Source of the DNA: Moniliella sp. 'wahieum'
Taxonomy: Eukaryota
Assembly (NCBI GenBank): GCA_003971905.1
Contig: RSEE01000024.1
Location: 248,001 to 312,000, forward strand
Direction: 5' to 3'
DNA length: 64,000 nt
Shown: one piece after another, positions 27,480-64,000 of the stretch
Layout: every line of letters begins with the position of its first letter
Numbering within the stretch: position 1 is the stretch's first letter
Program-made: the position numbers and the translations under genes
Notes under the pieces: generated by a model
The model's input: the letters and a program-made list of their open reading frames with translations, nothing else
What the model was told of the DNA's origin: nothing
The model's database searches: none

Positions 27480-28777
27480 GGGGGAGAAGAAGTGGTGCTC
27501 GCCGCCACGCCGCCACGAGAGAGAGGTTACCCAGCGAGGAGTATTAGGATCGCAAACCCTCTCCCTCAAACACATTCTTCCATGCCGATCGCACCCTTCG
27601 CCCTTCCTCCATCTGTCGCGTCCAATCCCGTGAGTACTGAATGTGCATGCTACACATGGCGTATGCTTCCCGCGCCAACTCATCCGCCCACGCACGAGTC
27701 CTCGCTCGCTGCTGGTGCCGCCCGAGGCCTGAGCATCGAATACCTGATGATGTAGCCTGGGTGAGCTGCCGCCACTCGTTCGTACATTGGGAAGCATAAA
27801 GAGTAGGGATTGCGCTCGGGCTCGCTGCGTTTACTGGCAATCATCTCGATAATCCACAGCAAGTTTCGAGCCACAAAACGCTACACAGACGTTACTAGTA
27901 CTAGCTACTGTTTGTATGTGCGATGAAGACCAGCCACTGCACAGGGGATGGCCCATGCAGGCCACATCGAGATAGGCGACCCAGTCCACATTGCATTGTT
28001 CCGGAAGCTGCTCCTCTTGGCTGCGGAGCGAAGGTAAAGATAAAACGCGACTGCCTTTCCTATATATGAGTGCTGTGCTGTGCGGTGCTCGATGCTCGAT
28101 GCTGGATACCAGGTATGCTTATAACTCCGCTTGGAACGTAAACCGAGTACAGCCCCCCCCCCTGGCAGGCGCGCCCAGGCCAAGCAGCATGAGTAGGAGG
28201 AACGCCACGTACTTATAGGCCTATAGCATCTGCCTTCCTTTTCCTCTCCTCTCTGCCCTCTTCCTTTCGAGTGGATAGATGACAGAGGAGCACTATGGAG
28301 CCACCAGGAAGACGCCGCGTCCGCGTCCTCTCCCCTCCACCCCAAACCCCTTCGCCTGACCCTCTTCCTCCACACTCCCACCCCGCACCCATCTAGTTCC
28401 CCCACCTCCTCCAGCACATGGCACATCCGATGCTACCCCTGCCCATGCAACACACACACACCCCTCCCGGTCCCGAGCTGCGTCATGCTCCCTCCACGTG
28501 GTCCCGTGCCCCCATCCCCCAGACTTTCCGTGACGAGCTGGCCAGGTCTCTTTCCGTCCACTCCATCTCATCAGCGGTTCTCTCCAGACATCCCAGAAAG
28601 AGTGCAGATATCACCATTCGCCCATGCGCCCGCACCCACACCCATACCCACTGCCCCGACACCTTCCATACCCGGACGGGCTATGCCTCTGCACTCTCTT
28701 CGCCTACCGTTTCCCGACACACCAACCAGGCCTCCCTTGTGTGCAGCCAGACGCTTCCCTTTACTCCGGGTACCCGT

Positions 28778-28957
28778 TGTCACAGTCGGGGCTAAGGCGA
28801 GGGAGACCAGGATCGGACTAGGCCAGGGGTGTAGCAATCGTTCGTGGGGAAGAAGCAAGAACAGAGGACATGGTGCGAAGTGGAAGGAACAGGAAGGAGC
28901 GAGACGCTCGACGACGAAGAAATTGGAAATGGGAGCGAGATCAGCCAAACTATGACA
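28778..28957 (-). repeat. 3' LTR (180 bp), TG...CA
   Basis: Direct repeat of 34371-34551; terminal inverted repeat TGTCAcAGT/ACTaTGACA. Confidence 0.97.
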
Positions 28958-28970
28958 TTGCCCCCTTTCA
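28958..28970 (-). other. Polypurine tract TGAAAGGGGGCAA
   Basis: Abuts the 3' LTR; its first triplet is the pol stop codon. Confidence 0.85.
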
Positions 28971-31900
28971 GACCTCATCTCCCGGGCGGCGACGAAGGCG
29001 AGAGAGGGCGAGTCGGCGGGCATGGGAGACAGGCTTATCGGGGTAGAGGGCGTGGAAACGAACCACTGGCTCGGCGTCATGAGACATGTCCGCAGCGGGT
29101 ACCCACTCCCTCTCGTGGACAGGATAGCCCCGGAAGTGAACAAAGTACTCAATGCGGCCTCCACGACCCTTGCGGCGAGAGTCGAGGACATGCTCGACCT
29201 CGTGATGAACCGCACCATCATCAGCAAACTCGGGGAGAGGAGGCGGGGGCTCGATCAAGCGGGCAGGGACCACGTCACCAGGGGTGTAGGCTCGCAAGCG
29301 GGACACATGGAACACGTCATGGAGGTGTAGGTAGTCGGGGAGGCGGACCTGGTACGCGGCGCGGCCCACGGCGCGGACAATGGGAAAGGGGCCGAGGTAG
29401 CGATAGTCCAGGCCGTCAGAAGGCCGCTGGCTGGACACATACCCGTCCCGACGGACCAAAACAGGCTGGCCGGCAGTGAAGGAAGCCGCCTCGGTGCGCT
29501 GCTGATCGGCATAATGCTTGTAGCGTTCTTGGGCCGCGGCGAGCGTGCGGCGGGCCACCGCCTGGGCCGAACGCAAATCCTCCAGATATGACGCAGCATC
29601 GGGCACGGGCGAAGTGGAGGGCTCCAACTCCCCCCGGGGGAGTAACCATAGGTGAGGACAAAGGGGGACTGGTGGGTGCTCGAGTGGGAGGACGAGTTGT
29701 AGGCGAATTCGGCCGTGGGGAGGAGATCGAACCAGTTGGACTGCTGCTCGTCGAGGTAGCAGCGGAGGTACTGTTCGAGGATCTGGTTGAGTCGCTCAGT
29801 CTGGCCGTCCGTCTGGGGGTGGTACGCGGTGCTGAGGCTCGACTTGATGCCCAAGTCGGCACACAAGGCTTGCCAGAAGTGGCTTGTGAAGGTCGGTCCC
29901 CGATCACTCACCAGATCCCGGGGAAGGCCATGGTAGCGAAAGACCTGGTGTACAAACTGGCGTGCGAGCTGGGGCGCAGTGTCCGTCGTGTGGGCGGGAA
30001 TGAAGTGACCCATTTTGGTAAAACGATCCACCACCACCAGAATCGCGTCGTAACCATTGGATCGGGGAAGCTGGGTAATGTGGTCCATCGTCAAGTGGGT
30101 CCACGGGCCTTGGGGAGGGGAAAGGGGCTGAAGGAGTCCAGCGGGTTGGTGGCGAGGCGCTTTGGTCCGTTGACAGCGGTCGCACGAGCGCACGTAGGCC
30201 CACACGTCGGCTGACAGGCGGGGCCACCAATATTGAGCGCGGACACGGGCCAACGTCTTGTCGCGCCCTTCATGGCCCGCCAATGCCGAGTCGTGGGCTT
30301 GGTGGAGAATGGCAGCGCGGATCGGCGGGTCGCTGGGACGTATACCTGGTTTCCGTGCCGCAAAAGGCCGTCGCGGACCGTCAAAGCATGGCGGGGTGGG
30401 CGTGGAGCCGTAGCAAGGGACCAACGAGGGTCACGAGGCAGGAGTTGGCGGATGCGCTGTCGAATCTCGTCGGCAGACACTCGCCCCACCACCGGTGTAT
30501 CGGGGTCCGCCGCCATGAGCTCGAGGGCGGCGGCAGAACGTTCGGACATGGGCTCCACCAGTACTTGAGGTGCCGCGTCAGCGGGCCGGGGCCCCTCAGC
30601 GAGGTCGGGACGGCGCGACAACCCGTCAGCCGCACCATTCTTCTGCCCGGCACGGTACACCATAGCAAGGCGGTAGGGGGACAGGGTCTGGCGCCATCGG
30701 CCCTGGCGGCGGTTCAACAGGCGGGGACGGCGGAACGTAGCAATGGCCTCGTGGTCCGTAAGCACTTGGACAGTCTCAACACTTTCGACGTAATGGCGCC
30801 ACACCTCCACGGCGGCCACGATGGCCAGCACCTCCTTTTCGGACGTAGTATAGTTCAGCTCGGCCGCGGTGAACTTGCGAGAATGGAAGGCGACCGGCCG
30901 CCAACGACCGTGAACATCCTGCTGGGCGAGCACCGCACCAAGCGCCGCGTCCGACGCGTCAGTCTGCGAGGCGAAGGGGGCGAGTGGGATCAAAGTGGCA
31001 GAGGAGGTGGGGCGAGGCAAAGACGCGCTTGAGCTCGGCAAACGCCTCTTCGCAGGCTGGGGTCCAAAAAACGCTGGTCCTTGCGTGTCAGGTCGGACAG
31101 AGGGGCTGAGATACGGGCAAAAGAACGGACGAAGTGACGGTAGTAGTTGGCGAAGCCGAGGAAGACTTGGACTTGGCGAGGGGTTCTGGGTGTTGGCCAC
31201 GACCGAATCGACTCAACCTTGGACGGGTCCATCCCGATCCCGTCAGGCGAAACGACGTAGCCCAGGTACTCGGTGCGGCGTGTGTGGAACTGACACTTGT
31301 CGGGGTTGAGGTAGAACTTGGCCAGCTGCAGACGCCGGAGGACCTCGGCAACGTGGCGCTCGTGCTCCATCTCATTAGTCGAAAAGATGAGGATGTCGTC
31401 GAGGTATGCCAATACCGAGACGTCGAGGAGGTCACGGAGGAGGTCGTTCATCACAGCTTGGAAGGTGGCAGGGGCGTTGCAAAGGCCAAACGGCATAACA
31501 AGGGATTCAAAGTGTCCGTACCGAGTGCGGAAGGCAGTCTTACTCTCGTCGCCTTCTCTCACCCGCAACAAGTTATACGCCCCACGGAGGTCAAGCTTGG
31601 TGAAGATGCGGGCCCCCGAGAGGCGGTCCAACGAGTCACTAATCAGAGGCAGAGCCAACCGGTTCTTGATCGTAACCGAGTTGAGCGCACGATAGTCCAC
31701 GCACAGGCGCAACGAGCCGTCCTTCTTTTTGACAAACAGGACGCCCGCGCCGAAGGGAGACTTGGATGGACGGATGAACCCTGCAGCCAGGTTCTCCTTG
31801 AGCCACTGGGACAAGGCCTGCATTTCGCCCGTCGACAAGGGGTAGAGGCGAGTGAAGGTGGGGGCGGCGCCGGGGACAAGGTCGATGGCGTGATCGGCGG

Positions 31901-33030
31901 CACGATGGGCGGGGAGCGTCTTAGCCCCTGACTTGGAAAAGGCGCTAAGGAAGGAGTGGTAGCGGGGAGGGACTGTCTGGCGGACGTGCTCGAGGTACTC
32001 GGGTGTGTCACACTCGTCGGGAAACATTGGCTCGGGACCGCCAGCGACCGCGACGGACGAGACGGCCAACTCGGGCTCAGGGGGAAATGCGACGTTTACC
32101 ATGGCCTCGGGTTCCTTGACCACCTCGAGCTCAAACTGCTCCAGAGAGAGAATGTCAATAGGCGGTCCAGACCGAGAAGGCAAGGAGGGACCCGGGCCAG
32201 AGGGCGCCGAGGAGGGGGTGTGGGGAAGAGGCTGCGTACCGCGCGACGGGGGGTGGGACGAAGTGGGTAAGAGAGGGGAGGAGGGGACGGGCTGGGAGGG
32301 AACCGAGGAGGGAAAAGGAATCGAGTTGACAGAGGGGGGCGAGATGGGGTTAGATGGGGAGGTGGACTTGGGCCGGGGCCCGGGCGAGTGCTGGTGCTGG
32401 TGCGTAGTCTTGGTCTTGGGCTGGTCTTGGTGCTGGGGCTGGTCTTGGTGCTTGGTCTGGTCTTGGTGCTTGGGCTGGTCTTGGTGCTTGGGCTGGTCTT
32501 GGGGCTTGGGTGGGGGTTGGGGCTGAGGCCGGGGTACAGTCGTGGAAGGCATATGGTGATCACGGCACTGCACCTTATCAAAGTAAAGGGTGTGCGAGGG
32601 GTAGTCGGTGCTGGGGTTGTGAGTCTCAAGGAAAGGGAGGCCGAGGATGAGGGGGTGATGGAGGGAAGTGAGGAAGAACTCCTCAGTTGAGACATGGGAG
32701 CCGATCACGACAGGCGCCTTCACCGCTTGGGTCACCAGACCCGAGGAAATGGGACGCCCGTCTACCACCCTGACGACCACAGGCGACGGCAGCGTGCGAG
32801 GAACCAGGCCATGCTGGCGGGCAAAACCATGGTCCATGAAAATACTGTTCGCACCAGAGTCGACCAAGGCGGTGACCGGGATCGGGGAAAAGGGAGACGG
32901 AGACGAGGGGCCAGGATGCAGATGGGCGAGTACCGTGAAAGACCGAGAGGAGGGGGGACAGGGCCCCACTGCCGCCTCAGACAGAATCAGCGGCGGGGCC
33001 GAGGAGGCGGCGGGGAGACCTGGACGTGGG
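28968..33030 (-). CDS. pol: Gypsy Pol polyprotein (protease, RT, RNase H, integrase, chromodomain)
   Basis: ALVDSGA; LRLCVDYRALN, KLDLRGAY, YLDDILI; TDASDAALGAVL; HHCC zinc finger, HPQTDGQTER, GPF; EVEHVLDSR..YFVHFRGY..EWVP. Several 1-bp frameshifts. Confidence 0.95.
32400..32505 (-). repeat. 18-bp tandem repeat (about 5 copies) encoding (PKHQDQ)n in the protease-RT spacer
   Basis: Repeated ctggtcttggtgcttggg units. Confidence 0.9.
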
Positions 33031-34329
33031 GCACTCGGCAATGAGGTGGTCACGGGAACCGCAGTAGAAGCACGCACCTTGAGCGCGGCGCTCGGTGCGC
33101 CGTGCCGCCGCTTCGGCGGTGGCGGTGGCTGCGCTGAGGTCCATGGGCTCGGCTTCGGGCGACGAGGGCCGAAACCAATGATTGCCGCCCGATCCCGGGG
33201 AGGTTGCGGTACCATGAGCGCCCAACGATTGCGATTGGTCGATGTCAATGGCCGCTGTGCGCAGTTGTTCGAAACTGATCCGTCCAAAGTGAGCCGACTC
33301 GCCGCGGGAGGCGATTGCGTCACGCACCCGCGGCTTCAAGCCGTACAGAAAGTGATAGTAGCGGTCCTCATCCGACGCGTTGGGGTTCCAGCGACGCAGC
33401 AGAACCGTGAACGTAGCGGCAGATCCCGTCTGCCGAAGACGACCAAACTCCTCAAACGCCTTCAGCGCCGGGTTGCGCTCGCCCCACTGCTCCAGGAAAG
33501 CTGCGCGAAACGCAGGCCAAGACCGGAGGGCGGGTGTGGTGCGCGCCTCCAGGGGAAGGGCCACCTCCGAACCGAACTGCTCGACCCAAGTGAGGGCCTC
33601 CCCCTGCAGCAGGCCCATGAAGCGGTCGATCCATGCCGCCGCGCCCAGATGCGTGAGGGCGACGCGCGCGTAAATCTCGAAGGAGGTGACGACGTGCTGG
33701 GCCTGGACCCGGTCCCGAGAGTTGGGATTCGCACCAGACGACGGGCGGAAACGAACGGGCTCGAACATCTTCGGCTCTTCCGACACCTTGTTCGGGATGG
33801 CGGTCAGATCACCATAAGGCCCAGGGGCGGGAGCGGGGGCGGGGCCCGAGGACACCACGCCAGTTTGAGCCTCCCGTACCGAGGCGGCCAACCGGGCCTC
33901 TTCCGCGGCGAGCGCCGCCTCCTCCCGCCGCTGACGGAGGCGGTGCTCACGGCGCTTCGCCTCTTGCTCATCCTCGAAAGCGCGGCGCTGGTCCTCCTGG
34001 GCTGCAAGGTAGGCCTGGTGTTCCCGGGCCTCCGTCAACAGAAGCTGGCGCATTCTGCGGGCCTCATCGACCCGGCGCTGAGCGGCCTCGAGGTCCAGGC
34101 CGGACAGGTCGGAGGCAGGCAATGTATACCCCGGGGGCGCGGGCGCAACAGACGGAGCTGCATGGGGGGGTTCAGAGGGGCCAGCCGGGTGGAACCACTC
34201 CGGGCCATCGTCGTCGAACGGAGCGTCAGAGGGGGGGTCGGACGGGGGTCGGATCGGGCCGCGCCGCGCGATGGGGTGCGGCGCGCTAGGGTTACTGGGG
34301 TCATGGGGGTTGTCGTGGATCGAGGACAT
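32977..34329 (-). CDS. gag: Gypsy Gag
   Basis: LQGEALTW, LRQTGS, FLYGLKPRV, EPMDL and zinc knuckle CFYCGSRDHLIAEC. Confidence 0.93.
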   Translation of the reverse strand: MSSIHDNPHDPSNPSAPHPIARRGPIRPPSDPPSDAPFDDDGPEWFHPAGPSEPPHAAPSVAPAPPGYTLPASDLSGLDLEAAQRRVDEARRMRQLLLTEAREHQAYLAAQEDQRRAFEDEQEAKRREHRLRQRREEAALAAEEARLAASVREAQTGVVSSGPAPAPAPGPYGDLTAIPNKVSEEPKMFEPVRFRPSSGANPNSRDRVQAQHVVTSFEIYARVALTHLGAAAWIDRFMGLLQGEALTWVEQFGSEVALPLEARTTPALRSWPAFRAAFLEQWGERNPALKAFEEFGRLRQTGSAATFTVLLRRWNPNASDEDRYYHFLYGLKPRVRDAIASRGESAHFGRISFEQLRTAAIDIDQSQSLGAHGTATSPGSGGNHWFRPSSPEAEPMDLSAATATAEAAARRTERRAQGACFYCGSRDHLIAECPTSRSPRRLLGPAADSV

Positions 34330-34370
34330 CTCTGGTCGGGCTCGCCTGTTGACGGTTAGACGAACGATAA

Positions 34371-34551
34371 TGTCACAGTCGGGGCTAAGGCGAGGGAGAC
34401 CAGGATCGGACTAGGCCAAGGGGTGTAGCAATCGTTCGTGGGGAAGAAGCAAGAACAGAGGACATGGTGCGAAGTGGAAGGAACAGGGAAGGAGCGAGAC
34501 GCTCGAGACGAAGAAATTGGAAATGGGAGCGAGATCAGCCAAACTATGACA
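34371..34551 (-). repeat. 5' LTR (181 bp)
   Basis: Differs from the 3' LTR by only three 1-bp indels; no substitutions seen. Confidence 0.97.
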
Positions 34552-37500
34552 CCCGTCGTCCTTGGCCAACAGCAGGCACCTCTCAATTCGCCCCTCCCTT
34601 GCACCAGTCCTCGGTTAGGCACCGCATTCACACCTTGCGTAAGCATTCGGTGGACTCACGGCGGCCTGTTTCTTGGAGCCCGTCATCTCTTCCCTCCCCA
34701 GCGCCACCCCCTGTTCCCCCGGACAGGCCAGCAGGAGGGAAGGCTCGCTTCGGGTCGATGAGCACTCCATTGCCTCCGCACACGACGGCTATCAATCCAC
34801 CTCATGTTTCGGGGGGAGCAGAGAGCTTGTCATGCTTGCGAGCACCGTCTCTCCCCCGATGTTACTCCAACGGCAACGGTCCTACCGTGCGAGGGACTAC
34901 CGATGGACAACTTTGCCGAGGCGTTGGAACACGTACGTCGAACCGTGCCGGAAGGCTATTGGTCTGCGGCGGCTCACCTGGGTGAGAGTGTGATACGCAT
35001 GAACGACGATCTGAAGCAGATTCGGGACGACATGGTAGCGTGGGGGGGAACCCGACCACGGTTCCTCTGTATTGACTCGAGGGAACTTGCCTGGCCCGTA
35101 TGATCGACAAGCTAGTCGAGAAACTAATGCATGTGCTGGGCCTGAGTCCCGTCTGCTCACTTTGGCTACGGACCTGGCTCGTCTCGTCGAATGGAGCATG
35201 GACCAAGCGCGTCTCGTGACTGAGACGTTGCTCCTGCTCGTTCCTCCCACTGCAACGCCCTCTTCGTCCCTTTCGTCCTCTGCCATGAGTTCGGGCATGT
35301 TAACGTCCGGCTCGGCTTCAGGTTTGTTGGAACGGTCGACACTACTGGTACCCTCATCCACACCTTCTGCAATGGTACCAGAGTCCAGAACCAGAGGATG
35401 TCCAACAGCACCTGAAAGACACTCTTTTACCACCCCTCCTTCTGACCATCATCTCCTCCCGTCCTTCGCGGTTCACTCGCCCCCATTACCTTCTCGGCTG
35501 CAACCTTCCCGCCCCACGCTGCGCCACTCGATTCGCACCGAAAGTACGTGGCGCACACGTCTTCACCTTCGGCAACAACGTACCCCCACCACCCTGCCCC
35601 TTGGCACGCCCCCACCCGCGGCACACCTCCGGCATATCTCGCGCCCAAACACCCGTCTCACCACTCCTGTCCACCGCGAGAGGATGGCGACTTGGGATTG
35701 GGGACGTAAAGAGGATGAGGATGCGGGAAGGCACTACACAGGGTGGATGTGGTACATGTGAACAAACGGTATGTGAAAAAGAGGTAGATCAATCGATGGT
35801 ATTCCAGTGCTTGTGGACCGGAGGGGAGAGCGATATGTCTTGAGCTGAAGGTTCTGTGGCTCTTCGATCACCGTCCCTCCAGTAGTCGAGCGATATGTAT
35901 ACTATGTGGGGCATCAGGTTACGATACTCCAATGCCTCTGGACTTCACCTCAGAATTTCCAATTCATTCTTGGGCGAGATCATCTCTCTCGCATATTTTC
36001 CTCTTTTTTGGCCATGTTAATTGTGTCCCGTTCAGATAGATTTGTGGGTACAATCCTTTACCTTCACAAGGAGTGTCCTCACGCCTTACTGGTTGGGCTT
36101 TCCATCTACCACTCCGTAGTCATAGAGGAGAGACAGCATTGCCATTGGCCAATCGGCCAACCTTGGATCGGGATATTATTCCCCTTGTAGGCGGGCCAAC
36201 ATGGCCCGTTTGCATCCTTGGGAATAGTAGTTATCAGGGGGCCGGGTGTGGAACTCGATCACGACTACTAGGGCCTCATCCCCCCTGTCGTTTTGACAGG
36301 TACCAATTGCTCTCCGACTCAGGGAAACCGACGAAGGAGCCAATGTACTGGAACTGGCGAAGGTAGCAAGGGGCCGAGGATCCGCTTCACCAATCAGTGC
36401 TCCTCGTCCCGGAGGCGGCTTATTCGGGCTGGTACCGCATTGAAACGGTACGGGCAGGAACGTTGACCACCGGATGGAACTTGATTGAGGGGGGGGGGGA
36501 AGAAGATCAACCACAAAGGCCCCCTTGTGCAACACCGTCTTGATTTTGAATGGCTCACAAGTACCTGCGCTTCAACGATCCACTTGGCCAAATCGACGGC
36601 ACCCTCTCTTAATCGACCAGTACCCAATCTCGCACGGTCAGCTCCAGCGCCTCACTCCGCAGCCGATGAGCGGCATGATAGCGCTTCCAAATGTCCTTGG
36701 CCGCATCAGTTGCTTAAGCCCGAGCCAATTGATGTTCTTCCTCTGACCCACCCGACCGCCCGGTCACCTGGTTTGAGCGGCTGAAACCTATGCATGATGT
36801 ACAACGGAGACAATTCTGGTGAGGCTGACTGGCAGGCAGTGTCGAGCGCACAGGCAGCTGATGGCCGCTATTCGGCCCAATCCGACATTATATGGTTACC
36901 GAAAAGGCGCAGATACAGTATCCACTGAGATTCCCTTGCTTTAAACTGTTGAGTGTGACGTCACCTGCGGCCCAGCCCACTGTTCAGACTCCGGTTTATT
37001 TCGGAGCAGATCTTCCCGAGGCTTCTGCCCCCAGTAATTCATTCCTTAGTCAACCATCTCCCTTCTCACCGGTAGCAGACCGCTGGGCAGATCTCCTCCG
37101 ACATAAACACATTACCAAAGGGCCTAAGGTGAGCCGGTCCCTTTTTTCATTCTCCTTCTTCGCGCCATCGTCATTTTGGACAATCATTGGACGTCGGTGC
37201 ACAGTTCCGGCTGTTGAAGTGTAACAACCAGATCGACGGACTAGATTTACTTCTTAATCTCCCGCCATTTTTGTTTTGTCCATCGGGCTTTGTCAGTAGA
37301 GAACATTCCTAACCAGAATACGAATTCTAAGGCCAAATGTGGAGGTAACAAGCTGCAGCCGAAGCCACTTCACAATTGATGGGCAACAATGGGAGGCCCA
37401 CATCGGATGCATTTAAGATCAGTAGTGTATAGGTCAGGTGGCACCGCCCAGGAGACTAATTTGATGTAATCTTAGGAGTCAGACCAACTCTCGTGAGAAT

Positions 37501-57537: not shown

Positions 57538-58153
57538 ACGTTGCAAGGACCCATTGGCATTGCATCGTGGTGGCGCCCACCCCCGTTTCCCGATACTTGA
57601 CACCAAGCTCAACCAGAGCGCAGAACTCGCATTATTAATCAATCAATGTATTCCACCATCCACCAGTATGCCGCACCACACACCACAACACCACCACGCT
57701 TGTGCAAGCAAGCAAGATACTCGCTCGATCAGCACCCCTTTTAATCATGCACCAAGGGACTACATTGCGATCGATGTATCCATATGCACTTTGTACGTCG
57801 AGAATGCAAGATCAATACGACTGAAGAGGCGGTTGGAACTAAGGCAAATCAGGACCTATGTGGCAGAGAACGAAACAGATGAAGGGAGAAAAAGAAACAT
57901 CAATCAGATGCACGAGGGCATCATCTAAGGAGAAAGAAAGGAAGAAAGGAAGAAGAGGGAAAGGCTAGAGACGTGGGGGAACCAGTGGCCATGACAAAAG
58001 AGGAGGTGAGGGGGGGGGGGCAATAATTGGGAGGAAACGAAAGTGGATGAGAGAGGATGGGAGAAAGGAGAGTGAGCTTCTCACCGGAGCAAAAATGAAG
58101 GTGGGGCGAAGCAAGTGGACAAAGGAGAGGAGAGGTGAAAAGGGAAGATGCGC

Positions 58154-61100
58154 TTAGCAGTCGTCCGAGCCTTCGCCTTCGCCGCTCCCGCCCCAGCTAC
58201 CGTCGCCATGGCCGTTCCAACCCCAGCTGCCATCGCCGTGGCTGCTGCCGCCCCAGCTGCCATGACCGTGGCTACTGCCGCCCCAGCTGCCGTCGCCATG
58301 GCCACCCCAGCCCCAGCTGCCGTCACCATGGCCACTTCCACCCCAGCTGCCATGACCGTGGCTGCTGCCGCCCCAGCTGCCGGCGGCGTGGCCGTTCCAA
58401 CCCGAGCTGCCATCGCCATGACCGTTCCAGCCCCAGCTGCCGTCGCCATGCCCGTTCCAGCCCCAGCTGCCATCGCCATGACCGTTCCAGCTAGAACTGC
58501 CACCGCTGTGACCGTTCCAGCCCCAGCTGCCGTCGCCGTGGCCACCCCAGCCCCAGCTGCCATCACCATGACCGTTCCAGCTACCAGCACTGTGGCTGTG
58601 GCCGTTCCAGCCCCAGCTACCGTCGCCATGACCGTTCCAGCCCCAGCTGCCGTCGCCATGCCCGTTCCAGCCCCAGCTGCCGTCGCCGTGACCATTCCAG
58701 CTAGAACTGCCACCGCCATGGCCGTTCCAGCTGCCGGCACCGTGACCGCCACCTGAAGCGCTGGCGCCACCAGACTTGGAAACGCCGCCGCTGGCACCGC
58801 CGTGGCCCGAGGCGCTAGCGCCACCCGACTTGGAAACGCTCCACGACTTGGAAGCACCGCCATTGCCACTGCCGTTGTCGCTGCCGCTGCCGTGGCCGTG
58901 ACCGGTCGCACCACCAGACTTGGAGGCGCTCCACGACTTGGAGGCACCACCATGGCCACTCTCATTGCCGCTGCCGCTGCCGTTGCCACTGCCGCTGCCG
59001 CTGCCGCTGCCATGACCATGACCGCTGGCTCCGCCGGATTGAGAAGCACTCCAGGACTTCGAGGCGCCCCCATGGCCGCTCTCATTGCCACTGCCGCTGC
59101 CGTGGCCGTCACCGCTAGCTCCGCCAGACTGGGAAGCACTCCAGGACTTGGAAGCACCACTATGGCCGCTCTCATTGCCGCTGCCACTGCCACTTCCGTG
59201 ACCGTGGCCGCTAGCGCCGCCAGACTGAGAAGCGCTCCACGACTTGGACGGGCTGCCGCTGCCACTGCTGTGACCGTGACCGCTGGCGCCACCAGATTGG
59301 GAGGCGCTGGCCGACTTGGAGGCACCGCCGTGGCTGCTCTGGTTGCCGCTGCCACTGCCGCTGCCACTGCCACTGCCACTACCGCTGCCGTGACCGTGAC
59401 CGCTAGCACCGCCAGACTGAGACGCGCTCCACGACTTGGACGGGCTGCCGCTGCCGTTTCCACTGCCGTTGCCGCTGCCGCTGCCACTTCCACTGCTGTG
59501 ACCGTGACCGCTGGCTCCACCAGACTGGGAAGCACTCGCCGACTTGGAGGCACCGCCGTGGCTGCTCTCGTTGCCACTGCCACTACCGCTGCCGTGACCG
59601 TGGCCGCTAGCGCCGCCAGACTGAGAAGCGCTCCACGACTTGGACGGGCTGCCGCTGCCACTGCTGTGACCGTGACCGCTGGCGCCACCAGATTGGGAGG
59701 CGCTGGCCGACTTGGAGGCACCGCCGTGGCTGCTCTGGTTGCCGCTGCCACTGCCGCTGCCACTGCCACTGCCACTACCGCTGCCGTGACCGTGACCGCT
59801 AGCACCGCCAGACTGAGACGCGCTCCACGACTTGGACGGGCTGCCGCTGCCGTTTCCACTGCCGTTGCCGCTGCCGCTGCCACTTCCACTGCTGTGACCG
59901 TGACCGCTGGCTCCACCAGACTGGGAAGCACTCGCCGACTTGGAGGCACCGCCGTGGCTGCTCTCGTTGCCACTGCCACTACCGCTGCCGTGACCGTGAC
60001 CGCTAGCACCGCCAGACTGAGACGCGCTCCACGACTTGGACGGGCTGCCGCTGCCACTGCTGTGACCGTGACCGCTGGCGCCACCAGATTGGGAGGCGCT
60101 GGCCGACTTGGAGGCACCGCCGTGGCTGCTCTGGTTGCCGCTGCCACTGCCGCTGCCACTGCCACTGCCACTACCGCTGCCGTGACCGTGACCGCTAGCA
60201 CCGCCAGACTGAGACGCGCTCCACGACTTGGACGGGCTGCCGCTGCCGTTTCCACTGCCGTTGCCGCTGCCGCTGCCACTTCCACTGCTGTGACCGTGAC
60301 CGCTGGCTCCACCAGACTGGGAAGCACTCGCCGACTTGGAGGCACCGCCGTGGCTGCTCTCGTTGCCACTGCCACTACCGCTGCCGTGACCGTGACCGCT
60401 AGCACCGCCAGACTGAGACGCGCTCCACGACTTGGACGGGCTGCCGCTGCCGTTTCCACTGCCGTTGCCGCTGCCGCTGCCACTTCCACTGCTGTGACCG
60501 TGACCGCTGGCTCCACCAGACTGGGAAGCACTCGCCGACTTGGAGGCACCGCCGTGGCTGCTCTCGTTGCCACTGCCACTGCCACTTCCGTGACCGTGGC
60601 CGCTAGCGCCGCCAGACTGAGAAGCGCTCCACGACTTGGACGGGCTGCCGCTGCCACTGCTGTGACCGTGACCGCTGGCTCCACCAGACTGGGATGCACT
60701 CGCCGACTTGGAGGCACCACCGTGGCTGCTCGAATGGCCGGTGGCACTGCCTCCGTTTGATTTGGACACGGCACCGGTGTTGGAAGCGCCGCCATGGCCG
60801 CTCCAGCTTCCCTCGCTGTGGCCGTGACCGGACCAGCCCCAGCTGCCGTCGCTGTGGCCGCTCCAGCTGGAGCTGCCATCACCGTGCCCACTGCCGCCCC
60901 AGCTGCCATGGCCGTGGCTGCTGCCGCCCCAGCTGCCGTCGCCGTGACCACTCCAGCTGGAGCTGTCGCCGTGACCGTTCCAACTGCCGGAGCTGCCATT
61001 GCCATGTCCATTCCAGCTGCCGGCACTGTGACTGTGCCCAGACCAGCCCCAGCTGCCGTCGCTATGGCCGCTCCAACTCGAGCTGCCATCACCGTGACCA

Positions 61101-63356
61101 CTGCCGCCCCAGCTTCCATGGCCGTGGCTGCTGCCACCCCAGCTGCCGGCACCGTGGCCGCTCCAGCTCGAGCTGCCATCACCGTGGCCACTCCAGCTGC
61201 CGCTGCCATGACCGCCACCGGAAGCGCTAGCGCCGCCAGACTTGGTCACACCGCCGCTGGCACCGCCCGAGCCACCGCTTCCACCGGAGTGAGAACCACC
61301 GCTGGAACCGCCACCGGCCGACTTCGAAGGGGCACCGCCAGAACCGCCCGAAGGGCTAGAGGCAGCAGACTTGGAGTAGCTCCTGGTGGCGCCACCCGAA
61401 GATCCGGCCCCACCCGACTTCGAGTGCCCGCCATTGCCACCCGACGGGCTAGCACCGCCTGACGATCCGGCACCGCTGGAGTGAGAGTAGCCGCTACCGG
61501 AACCGTTAGACTTGCTGGCGCCGCCCGAGGATCCGGCACCGCTGGAGTGAGAATAGTTGCCGCCAGACTGGCTAGCGCCACCCGAAGATCCGGCCCCACC
61601 CGACTTCGAGTGCCCGCCATTGCCACCCGACGGGCTAGCACCGCCCGAGGATCCGGCACCGCTGGAATGCGAGTAGCCGCTCCCAGACCCGTTCGACTTG
61701 CTGGCGCCGCCGAGGATCCGGCACCGCTGGAGTGAGAGTAGTTGCCGCCAGACTGGCTAGCGCCACCCGAAGATCCGGCCCCACCCGACTTCGAGTGCCC
61801 GCCATTGCCACCCGACGGGCTAGCACCGCCCGAGGATCCGGCACCGCTGGAATGCGAGTAGCCGCTACCGGAACCGTTCGACTTGCTGGCGCCACCCGAG
61901 GAACCGGCACCGCTGGAGTGAGAATAGTTGCCGCCAGACTGGCTAGCGCCACCCGAAGATCCGGCCCCACCCGACTTCGAGTGCCCGCCATTGCCACCCG
62001 ACGGGCTAGCACCGCCCGAGGATCCGGCACCGCTGGAATGCGAGTAGCCGCTACCGGAACCGTTCGACTTGCTGGCGCCACCCGAGGAACCGGCACCGCT
62101 GGAGTGAGAATAGTTGCCGCCAGACTGGCTAGCGCCACCCGAAGATCCGGCCCCACCCGACTTCGAGTGCCCGCCATTGCCACCCGACGGGCTAGCACCG
62201 CCCGAGGATCCGGCACCGCTGGAATGCGAGTAGCCGCTCCCAGACCCGTTCGACTTGCTGGCGCCGCCCGAGGATCCGGCACCGCTGGAGTGAGAATAGT
62301 TGCCGCCAGACTGGCTAGCGCCACCCGAAGATCCGGCACCGCTGGAGTGAGAATAGTTGCCGCCAGACTGGCTAGCGCCACCCGAAGATCCGGCCCCACC
62401 CGACTTCGAGTGCCCGCCATTGCCACCCGACGGGCTAGCACCCCCGAGGATCCGGCACCGCTGGAATGCGAGTAGCCGCTCCCAGACCCGCTCGACTTGC
62501 TGGCGCCACCCGAGGAACCGGCACCGCTGGAATGAGAGTGGCCGCTACCGGAACCGTTTGACTTGCTGGCACCGCCCGTGGATCCGGCGCCGCTAGAGTG
62601 CGAGTGGCCGCTGTTGCCGCCAGACTGGCTAGGACCGCCGGAGGATCCGGCACCGCTAGAGTGCGAGTAACCGCTGCCCGACCCGTTGGATTTGCTGGCA
62701 GCGCCCGAAGAACCGGCGCCACTGGAGTGGGACCCGGTGGCGCTTCCACTCACACTCCCCGTGGCCCCACCATTGCCGCTGTGACTGCTGTTGTCACTCC
62801 ATGATTTGTTTGATGCGCCACTTGCGCTCCATCCCCAGCTCCCGGACCCACCCCTGCTGTTAGACGCGCTCCCGCCCCCGGATTTAGACCACGATCCTCC
62901 GGAGCCATTGTTTCCGGATTTACTGGCACCCCCGGACTTGGAAACGCCACCGGAAGCCCCTCCCGAGCCACTTCCATTGCCCGAAGCGCTTGCACCTTGC
63001 GATTTGGAAGCGATGCCAGTTGCAGCACTGCGACTTGCACGGGATCGGCTCTTCTTGGCGGCGCAGCCGCCTTCGGCCGAACCCTGGAAGTGCCCGCCGG
63101 CGCTGTAGCCACCATTGGCACCGCCGCTAGCACCCCAGTTCCAACCACCGTTACCGCCGTTTCCGTTACCGTTCCAGTGCCCTCCTTCGCTGAAACCGGC
63201 ACTGTAGTGGTCGCTGTAGCCCCATTGGCCGCTGACTTCGTCGCGCTTGGCTTGGTTGCGGCGATCAGGCGCAGGCGACGGTAGTGTGTATGCTTCAACC
63301 GCGACGGCGCCGACGAGCGCCGTTGCCAGAAGAGCGAATGAAGGTTGGAGTTGCAT
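58154..63356 (-). CDS. Giant secreted Gly/Ser/His/Trp-rich modular repeat protein (about 1,730 aa after correcting two 1-bp deletions)
   Basis: Signal peptide MQLQPSFALLATALVGAVAVEA and dibasic KR. Deletions near 62443 and 61711 are evident against neighbouring repeat copies; restoring them joins the ATG at 63356 to the 1031-aa ORF ending GSDDC*. Confidence 0.88.
58190..62720 (-). repeat. Coding minisatellite arrays: ~30-bp units (58190-58750, 60790-61230), 396-bp higher-order repeat (about 59220-60400), 186-bp units (about 61390-62460)
   Basis: Periods read from recurring anchors at 59221/59617/60013 and 61762/61948/62134. Confidence 0.93.
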
Positions 63357-64000
63357 CAAAATGCCAGAGTGCGCTGCAAATGAGTGTTGCGCGCGGCAAG
63401 AAAGAAGAGGAAGGAGGGTGCAGAGGACCAAGAGGTGCAGCGAGGCAAAAGAAGAAGAATTATATACTCCCAGGGAGATCACATATTTGGAACGAATGGC
63501 AAGACTGGCGTTATGCGTGTGCTGCGGGGGAAAGGGTCGCATTTTTGTTTTTTCCTTTGTCGACGTTGAGGCACTACAACAGCCACCCCTTATGGACCTG
63601 TTCCACGTATTCCTACCACCAGGTACTTGAGCCAGCGCAAGGCCCATTTCGGTTCCAGGGCCCCGTCAGGTACCCCCGTCACTCAACCACATGCACAAAC
63701 ATACCCTCGAGCACATATACTACCCGCCGCGCCCGCAGACACAGCATGGGAACATATCACCAGTGTGTCATTCTGTCCTAATAGACAGTTACCTGATCTG
63801 AGATTTGGATAGTCGAGAAGCACCCTGGACACTTCACCGTGCCGTCGAGGCATTCCAGCGCAACCCAAGGTATTTCCAAGGGGGGATGGGGTGATATAGG
63901 CACAATCGGACCCTATGCCTCATCTGTAGCTCAGTTTTCAGGCTTCAAGCCATCCCCCACCCAGCGTGTCGGGGGGGGGGGGGGGGGGGGGGGCATACAT

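Follow-up and report, generated by a model that had tools for sequence, protein, structure and literature searches.

The Ty3/Gypsy element described here, a copy of what we call family A, works with a probability of roughly nine in ten like Tf1. It would then be a self-primed chromovirus of the Tf1/sushi type, and a set of short fold-back inserts scattered over the same genome would stem from its plus-strand strong-stop DNA. Tf1-type self-priming had been proposed in a first-pass annotation of this DNA. It is supported by the clade of the element, by covarying primer/PBS pairs, by a helix between U5 and the leader, by the fold-back inserts and by the lack of a tRNA match in a partial tRNA set. 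The mechanism as such is already known, and family A is an ordinary new example of it. The fold-back inserts are the new part and are worth following up.

A chromovirus with a PBS complement in its LTR

The window, a 64,000-nt stretch of Moniliella sp. 'wahieum' DNA, contains a whole Ty3/Gypsy chromovirus of 5774 bp on the minus strand (28778..34551; all features of the element given below lie on this strand). This is evident from the domain order with a C-terminal chromodomain, the TG...CA LTRs, the polypurine tract and the 5-bp target-site duplication, ACGGG, found at 34552..34556 on the 5' side and at 28773..28777 on the 3' side. The 5' LTR measures 181 bp (34371..34551) and the 3' LTR 180 bp (28778..28957). 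They differ by three single-base indels and by no substitution, and for this reason the copy is young. The gag ORF (32977..34329) encodes a CCHC knuckle near its C-terminus and has no Pfam match. The pol region (28968..33335) encodes protease, RT, RNase H, integrase, SH3 and chromodomain, with Pfam matches in the order protease, RVT_1, RT_RNaseH, Integrase_H2C2, rve, SH3_Tf2-1 and Chromo. It is spread over four reading frames as assembled. Homopolymer indels are frequent among the assembled family A copies, so some of these frame breaks may be assembly errors. The best PDB matches are Ty3-type RT entries (E ~1e-60). The polypurine tract GAAAGGGGG, followed by C-AA (28958..28969), also precedes the 3' LTR in other copies.

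The interval between protease and RT holds an 18-nt tandem repeat together with a proline/serine-rich spacer (32367-32540), and a 6/12-nt repeat lies near the RT of a related element (family B, locus L072). Elsewhere in the window, the minus strand carries long Gly/Ser-type tandem repeats with periods of 30, 186 and 396 nt (58079-63665), in which there are open frames of more than 1000 codons. An Msb1/Mug8 domain was found in a host gene, as suits a fungus.

The 5' LTR is followed by TT (34369..34370), which mirrors the AA before the TG of the 3' LTR, and then by the PBS ATCGTTCGT (34360..34368). The first-pass annotation had remarked that this site cannot pair with a tRNA CCA end, and there is indeed no TGG in the 30 nt past the LTR end on the minus strand. 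It had also pointed to an exact PBS complement inside the LTR. We could confirm this complement, ACGAACGAT, at 34439-34431, 60 nt from the LTR end; a second copy lies in the 3' LTR at 28845-28837. The 9-mer is the putative self-primer, predicted to form nt 1-9 of the mRNA with a C-A boundary at -1/+1. The presumed U3 upstream of it (34440..34551) ends in a C/T-rich tract directly before the primer and is the portion that is found inverted in the fold-back inserts.

In the window, the 9-mer occurs four times versus 0.32 expected from shuffled sequences, and three of the four occurrences belong to the element, one in each LTR and one at the PBS. By arithmetic from the shuffle rate, the chance that a 181-nt LTR matches any of six PBS offsets is ~0.003. 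A genome search with the LTR-PBS region, in which 40 of 458 candidates were scored, returned 22 family A 5' LTR-PBS copies, all of them with both 9-mers intact. Taken alone this conservation is weak evidence, since the copies are close kin.

Covarying pairs and the fold of the leader

Covarying pairs are found among related families. We searched 30 of the 32 RT-bearing loci of the genome for LTR pairs, the remaining two being family A copies, and found such pairs in families B, C and D only. Family B, with an RT 89% identical to that of family A, has kept both 9-mers but has changed in the bases that follow the primer and the PBS. Family C (locus L067, which has the same LTR as locus L062 with its RT of 56% identity) pairs AAGCCGCCGACCAT with ATGGTCGGCGGCTT over 14 nt. 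The two lie ~335 nt apart and are unlike the family A pair, and a TATAAAA sits 40 nt upstream of the primer. Family D (RT 43%) falls into two subfamilies, one with ACCCTCCAT/ATGGAGGGT in four of four loci and the other with ACCTTCCAT/ATGGAAGGT in five of six, the sixth being a decayed copy. The two differ by a C:G to T:A exchange that affects primer and PBS alike and sits at one and the same position of the LTR, a clean compensatory change. Such a two-sided change is expected if every cycle copies the PBS anew from the primer. Throughout families A-D, the primer starts at a C-A boundary and the pairing ends there.

Metagenome data yielded 80 further loci. Of these, 26 long ones were screened for paired LTRs, and eight elements other than L214, L217, L223 and L231 were read. 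Among these relatives (RT 52–55%), five of the eight have exact pairs of 10–12 nt in three different sequences: AGTCTGAAAT in L167, L189 and L205, AGTCTGTAAATT in L222 and ATCTAGTTCT in L182. Each of the five primers lies ~33 nt after a TATAAG. L228 matches at 11 of 12 positions with one mismatch, as judged from its 3' LTR, and the 5' LTRs of L224 and L226 are truncated. Altogether, complements of 9–14 nt with differing sequences occur in three related genome families and three metagenome families, and the exchange in family D is a compensatory change of the kind that the first-pass annotation had asked to look for.

Two further features of these loci may be mentioned. After a 2-nt spacer (TT, TA, GT or GA), the PBS opens with AT in families A-D, L189 and L222; L182 is the exception and opens with AG. 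In L217 and L231, two LTR copies stand in tandem, ~600 nt apart, upstream of the RT.

The primer-PBS duplex of family A comprises only 9 bp. An imperfect extension of the pairing, TGCTACA with TGTGACA, had been suggested as well. It is present in the sequence and in the minimum free energy (MFE) fold, but it is not conserved: family B has CTTGCCT at this place, which abolishes the pairing, and we rejected the extension as a conserved helix. A 100-nt fold including the primer closes the 9-bp helix in the MFE structure with a z-score of -0.60, which is no better than shuffles.

In primer-free folds of the R-U5-PBS-leader region, a helix between U5 and the leader downstream of the PBS forms in families A, B and C (z-scores -1.97, -1.81 and -0.93). 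No clear U5-leader helix is seen in family D, and the full set of z-scores is modest (-1.97, -1.81, -0.93, -0.37, -0.69). In family A, the U5 arms CCTGGTC (34404-34398) and CTCGCCT (34394-34388) face the leader arms GACCAG (34337-34332) and AGGCGAG (34347-34341), respectively. By eye, family B keeps the pairing with matching changes, CTTGGTC/GACCAAG and CTCGTTT/AGACGAG; its MFE fold contains the first of these two helices only. As modelled by these folds, the extra helix that is conserved is not the TGCTACA extension but the one between U5 and the leader downstream of the PBS. It would match one of the flanking duplexes in the pretzel structure described for Tf1 (PMC10085805). Of the pretzel duplexes, families A, B and C have the predicted primer-PBS and U5-leader helices, and A and B do not share the third one, all with modest z-scores.

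Fold-back inserts in the genome

In the genome search with the LTR-PBS region, we noticed four places at which an LTR and its PBS are followed by the LTR again, this time reversed. The inverted arm covers positions 50-170 of the query in this search and, in comparisons with the element, its positions 1-121 (U3 and the 9-mer). The part of the LTR that lies upstream of the 9-mer follows as its reverse complement, joined exactly through the 9-mer. A search for this junction gave nine matches in family A and four in family B. The family A matches represent eight sites, because two of them (C145 and C190) have common flanks. About 12 sites in families A and B hence carry inserts composed of LTR, TT, PBS and inverted U3, ~300 bp long in the intact cases. 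For comparison, 26 exact normal 5' LTR-PBS junctions were found in both families, plus two variants.

Five of the 12 sites are bordered by exact direct 5-bp target-site duplications (GTCGT, GGCCT, CTCCG, CCCCC and GACAC), with unrelated flanks and in two families. The other seven comprise two near matches (C39 and C16) and five decayed or truncated cases (C5, C44, C50, C20 and C159, the last two with common flanks). A polypurine tract precedes the insert in none of the 11 junction matches with a visible left end, which argues that the inserts derive from LTR-only DNA. The LTR as it stands today is matched in full by the young inserts (100% over 192 and 121 nt). In old ones, whose arms have diverged, both arms show different LTR variants, and these variants point to a repeated origin. 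Folded as DNA, a plus strand ending in the PBS pairs with itself with z-scores of -2.54 (A) and -1.47 (B).

Family C shows a fold-back junction in one of three PBS matches (L096:1260-1570, C106); this locus is rearranged, has no clear target-site duplication, and its left part is an inverted U5 piece. The family D junction search gave no clean insert and one decayed case (L105:645-1535, C109), in which an old family D LTR, spacer and PBS are followed by 8 nt of inverted U3 tip, flanked by GCTAA and GTTAA.

Some other arrangements may be mentioned as well. A full-length family A copy (L032:943-6707, C48) has its 3' LTR inverted, with the polypurine-tract side joined to the U5 end. Both outer ends are therefore U3, and they are flanked by TACTC and TACCC (4/5 identical). 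Two family B inserts with a truncated left arm and flanks in common (L085 and L087, ~1290-1680) adjoin sequence resembling the end of a family D LTR; the two may have multiplied jointly as part of a larger repeat. The region around C190 (L023) and C145 (L025) is present on two contigs as a haplotig or an assembly duplication.

Judged by this structure, the best reading of the inserts is that they would be plus-strand strong-stop DNA that folded back, was extended and was then inserted by the integrase. They could instead be template switches of host replication at the 9-bp inverted repeat, or artefacts of long-read assembly. The assembly is rich in homopolymer indels, palindromes pose problems for sequencing, and one site does occur twice (C145 and C190, 99% identical over 2.2 kb). 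A switch or an artefact would, however, run on into the inverted upstream flank, and the arm stops at the LTR tip. Together with the direct 5-bp repeat after the arm at five sites with unrelated flanks in two families, and with the diverged arms of the old inserts, this makes such an origin very improbable. Somewhat less far-fetched, and still improbable, is a single origin in each family, after which the inserts would have multiplied as a non-autonomous, MITE-like element. It would suit the terminal inverted repeats of ~110–120 bp and the number of inserts, ~12 sites versus 26–28 normal 5' LTR-PBS junctions. Against it, young inserts match the present LTR, and in old ones both arms are of other LTR variants; the ends of the inserts and their 5-bp duplications are those of this element's own integrase. 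The inserts cannot be reverse-transcribed in the normal way, since they lack a polypurine tract and a second R. The fold-back inserts are not recombination relics and, on present evidence, not a replicating family.

Proposed mechanism and relation to known elements

The following sequence of events can be proposed. The mRNA of family A would start at or very near A34439, with its first 9 nt annealed to the PBS and U5 paired to the leader. The element's own RNase H, a domain recognised by Pfam, would cut after nt 9, releasing a primer that the RT would extend over TT, U5 and R. Integrases of retroviruses generally trim a terminal dinucleotide, and the TT beside the PBS may be removed in this manner. 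Plus-strand strong-stop DNA would end in the primer copy, i.e. ATCGTTCGT. This 3' tail, meant for the end of the minus strand, would also be complementary to the R start of its own strand, ~60 nt away. Inside the particle, the tail may fold back onto it, and the RT would copy U3, giving LTR-TT-PBS-inverted U3 with two U3 (TG...CA) ends. The integrase would insert this two-U3-ended product with a 5-bp duplication. The second strand of the insert might come from a U3 strand primed at the polypurine tract that switches onto the hairpin arm, or from two hairpin ends that integrate together, followed by repair.

Self-priming may be right and the mRNA may still start upstream of 34439, or at several sites, in which case the primer would be longer than 9 nt or be cut out internally. 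Tf2 has alternative start sites (PMC5341516), and the LTR of family A shows no visible TATA box. The fold-back junction is compatible with any primer 5' end within U3 and leaves the start site unfixed, because a primer with extra U3 bases gives the same junction. Nevertheless, the pairing ends exactly at the A of the C-A boundary in each of the four families, a TATA-like box, where visible, stands at a steady 33–40 nt from the primer, and the Tf1 primer consists of the first 11 nt of its mRNA (PMC7175516). We therefore regard a different start as unlikely. That a host tRNA or a tRNA fragment primes reverse transcription, with the LTR complement being incidental, seems barely credible. The PBS of families C and D does contain TGG one base in. 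Of 2133 candidates in an Rfam search of the genome for tRNAs, 63 were scored, most of them copies of Ala, and spliced tRNAs would escape a genomic exact match. Still, families A and B have no TGG, and the host tRNA matching the PBS that might have contradicted the first-pass annotation was not found in this partial set. The 8-mer ACGAACGA is absent from all 42 tRNA-gene matches that were fetched. The genome holds 32 occurrences of the 12-nt complement shared by families A and B; of these, 28 are PBS copies of the elements, and at the four others there is neither a tRNA nor another Rfam family. A tRNA primer would moreover leave both the joint change of LTR and PBS and the fold-back junction unexplained. 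As to the tRNA matches themselves, there are none in the 64,000-nt window. About 40 equal-scoring ones are scattered over many contigs (L114-L136 and others); the one that was typed is a tRNA-Ala(AGC), and they are possibly a tRNA-derived repeat.

Priming by the 5' end of the own mRNA, which the first-pass annotation had taken as established for Tf1, is documented for Tf1: the first 11 nt of its mRNA anneal to the PBS, and RNase H cuts directly behind these 11 nt (PMC7175516). In about 50% of Tf1 cDNA, the PBS at the 3' end stays single-stranded (PMC11042837). Self-priming has been proposed for Tj1 (PMC4600332), the Tosmo elements (PMC10085805), Tcn1 of Cryptococcus (PMC7175516) and the plant Tcn1 clade (PMC6317226). 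As far as the available text of these sources goes, bench proof is confined to Tf1, and elsewhere the mechanism is predicted from complementarity. SM-Tcn1, a Tcn1-clade element, showed signs of neither priming mode (PMC2864245). The survey by Neumann et al. (PMC6317226) required complementarity of at least 10 bp and would for this reason miss the 9-bp case of family A; its additional files list predicted self-primers and may bear on the question of novelty.

Family A shares with the Tf1/sushi group a PBS that has no complement to a tRNA 3' end and is complementary to a stretch within the 5' LTR; this likeness to Tf1, sushi and Tcn1 elements is one of features. The Tcn1 element of Cryptococcus neoformans and the Tcn1 or Tf1-sushi group are likewise fungal chromoviruses for which self-priming has been proposed from their sequence (PMC7175516, PMC6317226). 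Compared with Tf1/Tf2 of Schizosaccharomyces pombe (and with Tj1, Tosmo1-3 and Tcry1), the duplex is 9 nt long instead of the 11 nt of Tf1, a 2-nt spacer precedes the PBS, and one flanking helix is conserved; for family A, all of this is known from sequence alone. A further difference is that integrated fold-back products exist here, and we found none described for Tf1.

Solo LTRs and TRIMs have TG...CA ends and a 5-bp target-site duplication, and MITEs have terminal inverted repeats. The fold-back inserts resemble them in being short and non-coding, with TG...CA ends and a target-site duplication, or with inverted repeats. Unlike all of these, they have two inverted U3 ends joined by a PBS and no polypurine tract. 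We found no description of PBS-joined inserts of this kind in the literature searched, which comprised titles and the beginnings of abstracts, with few subscription papers and without supplements.

We lean slightly towards a more general view, namely that self-primed LTR retrotransposons repeatedly shed MITE-looking elements of the structure LTR-spacer-PBS-inverted U3, inserted by their integrase with a 5-bp target-site duplication, the cause being that their plus-strand strong-stop DNA, with its terminal primer copy, folds back. Such elements would be a built-in cost of self-priming and a fossil that proves the mechanism; their integrase would accept two U3 ends, and they are possibly undescribed. 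With the inserts, sequence alone allows a test of whether the copied PBS really encounters the R start while reverse transcription is under way, and every genome that harbours Tf1/sushi-type elements could be screened for them. They would also account for some of the small elements with inverted repeats that might be classed as DNA transposons by annotation tools. More speculatively, their perfect hairpins of ~120 bp might feed small-RNA silencing of the family.
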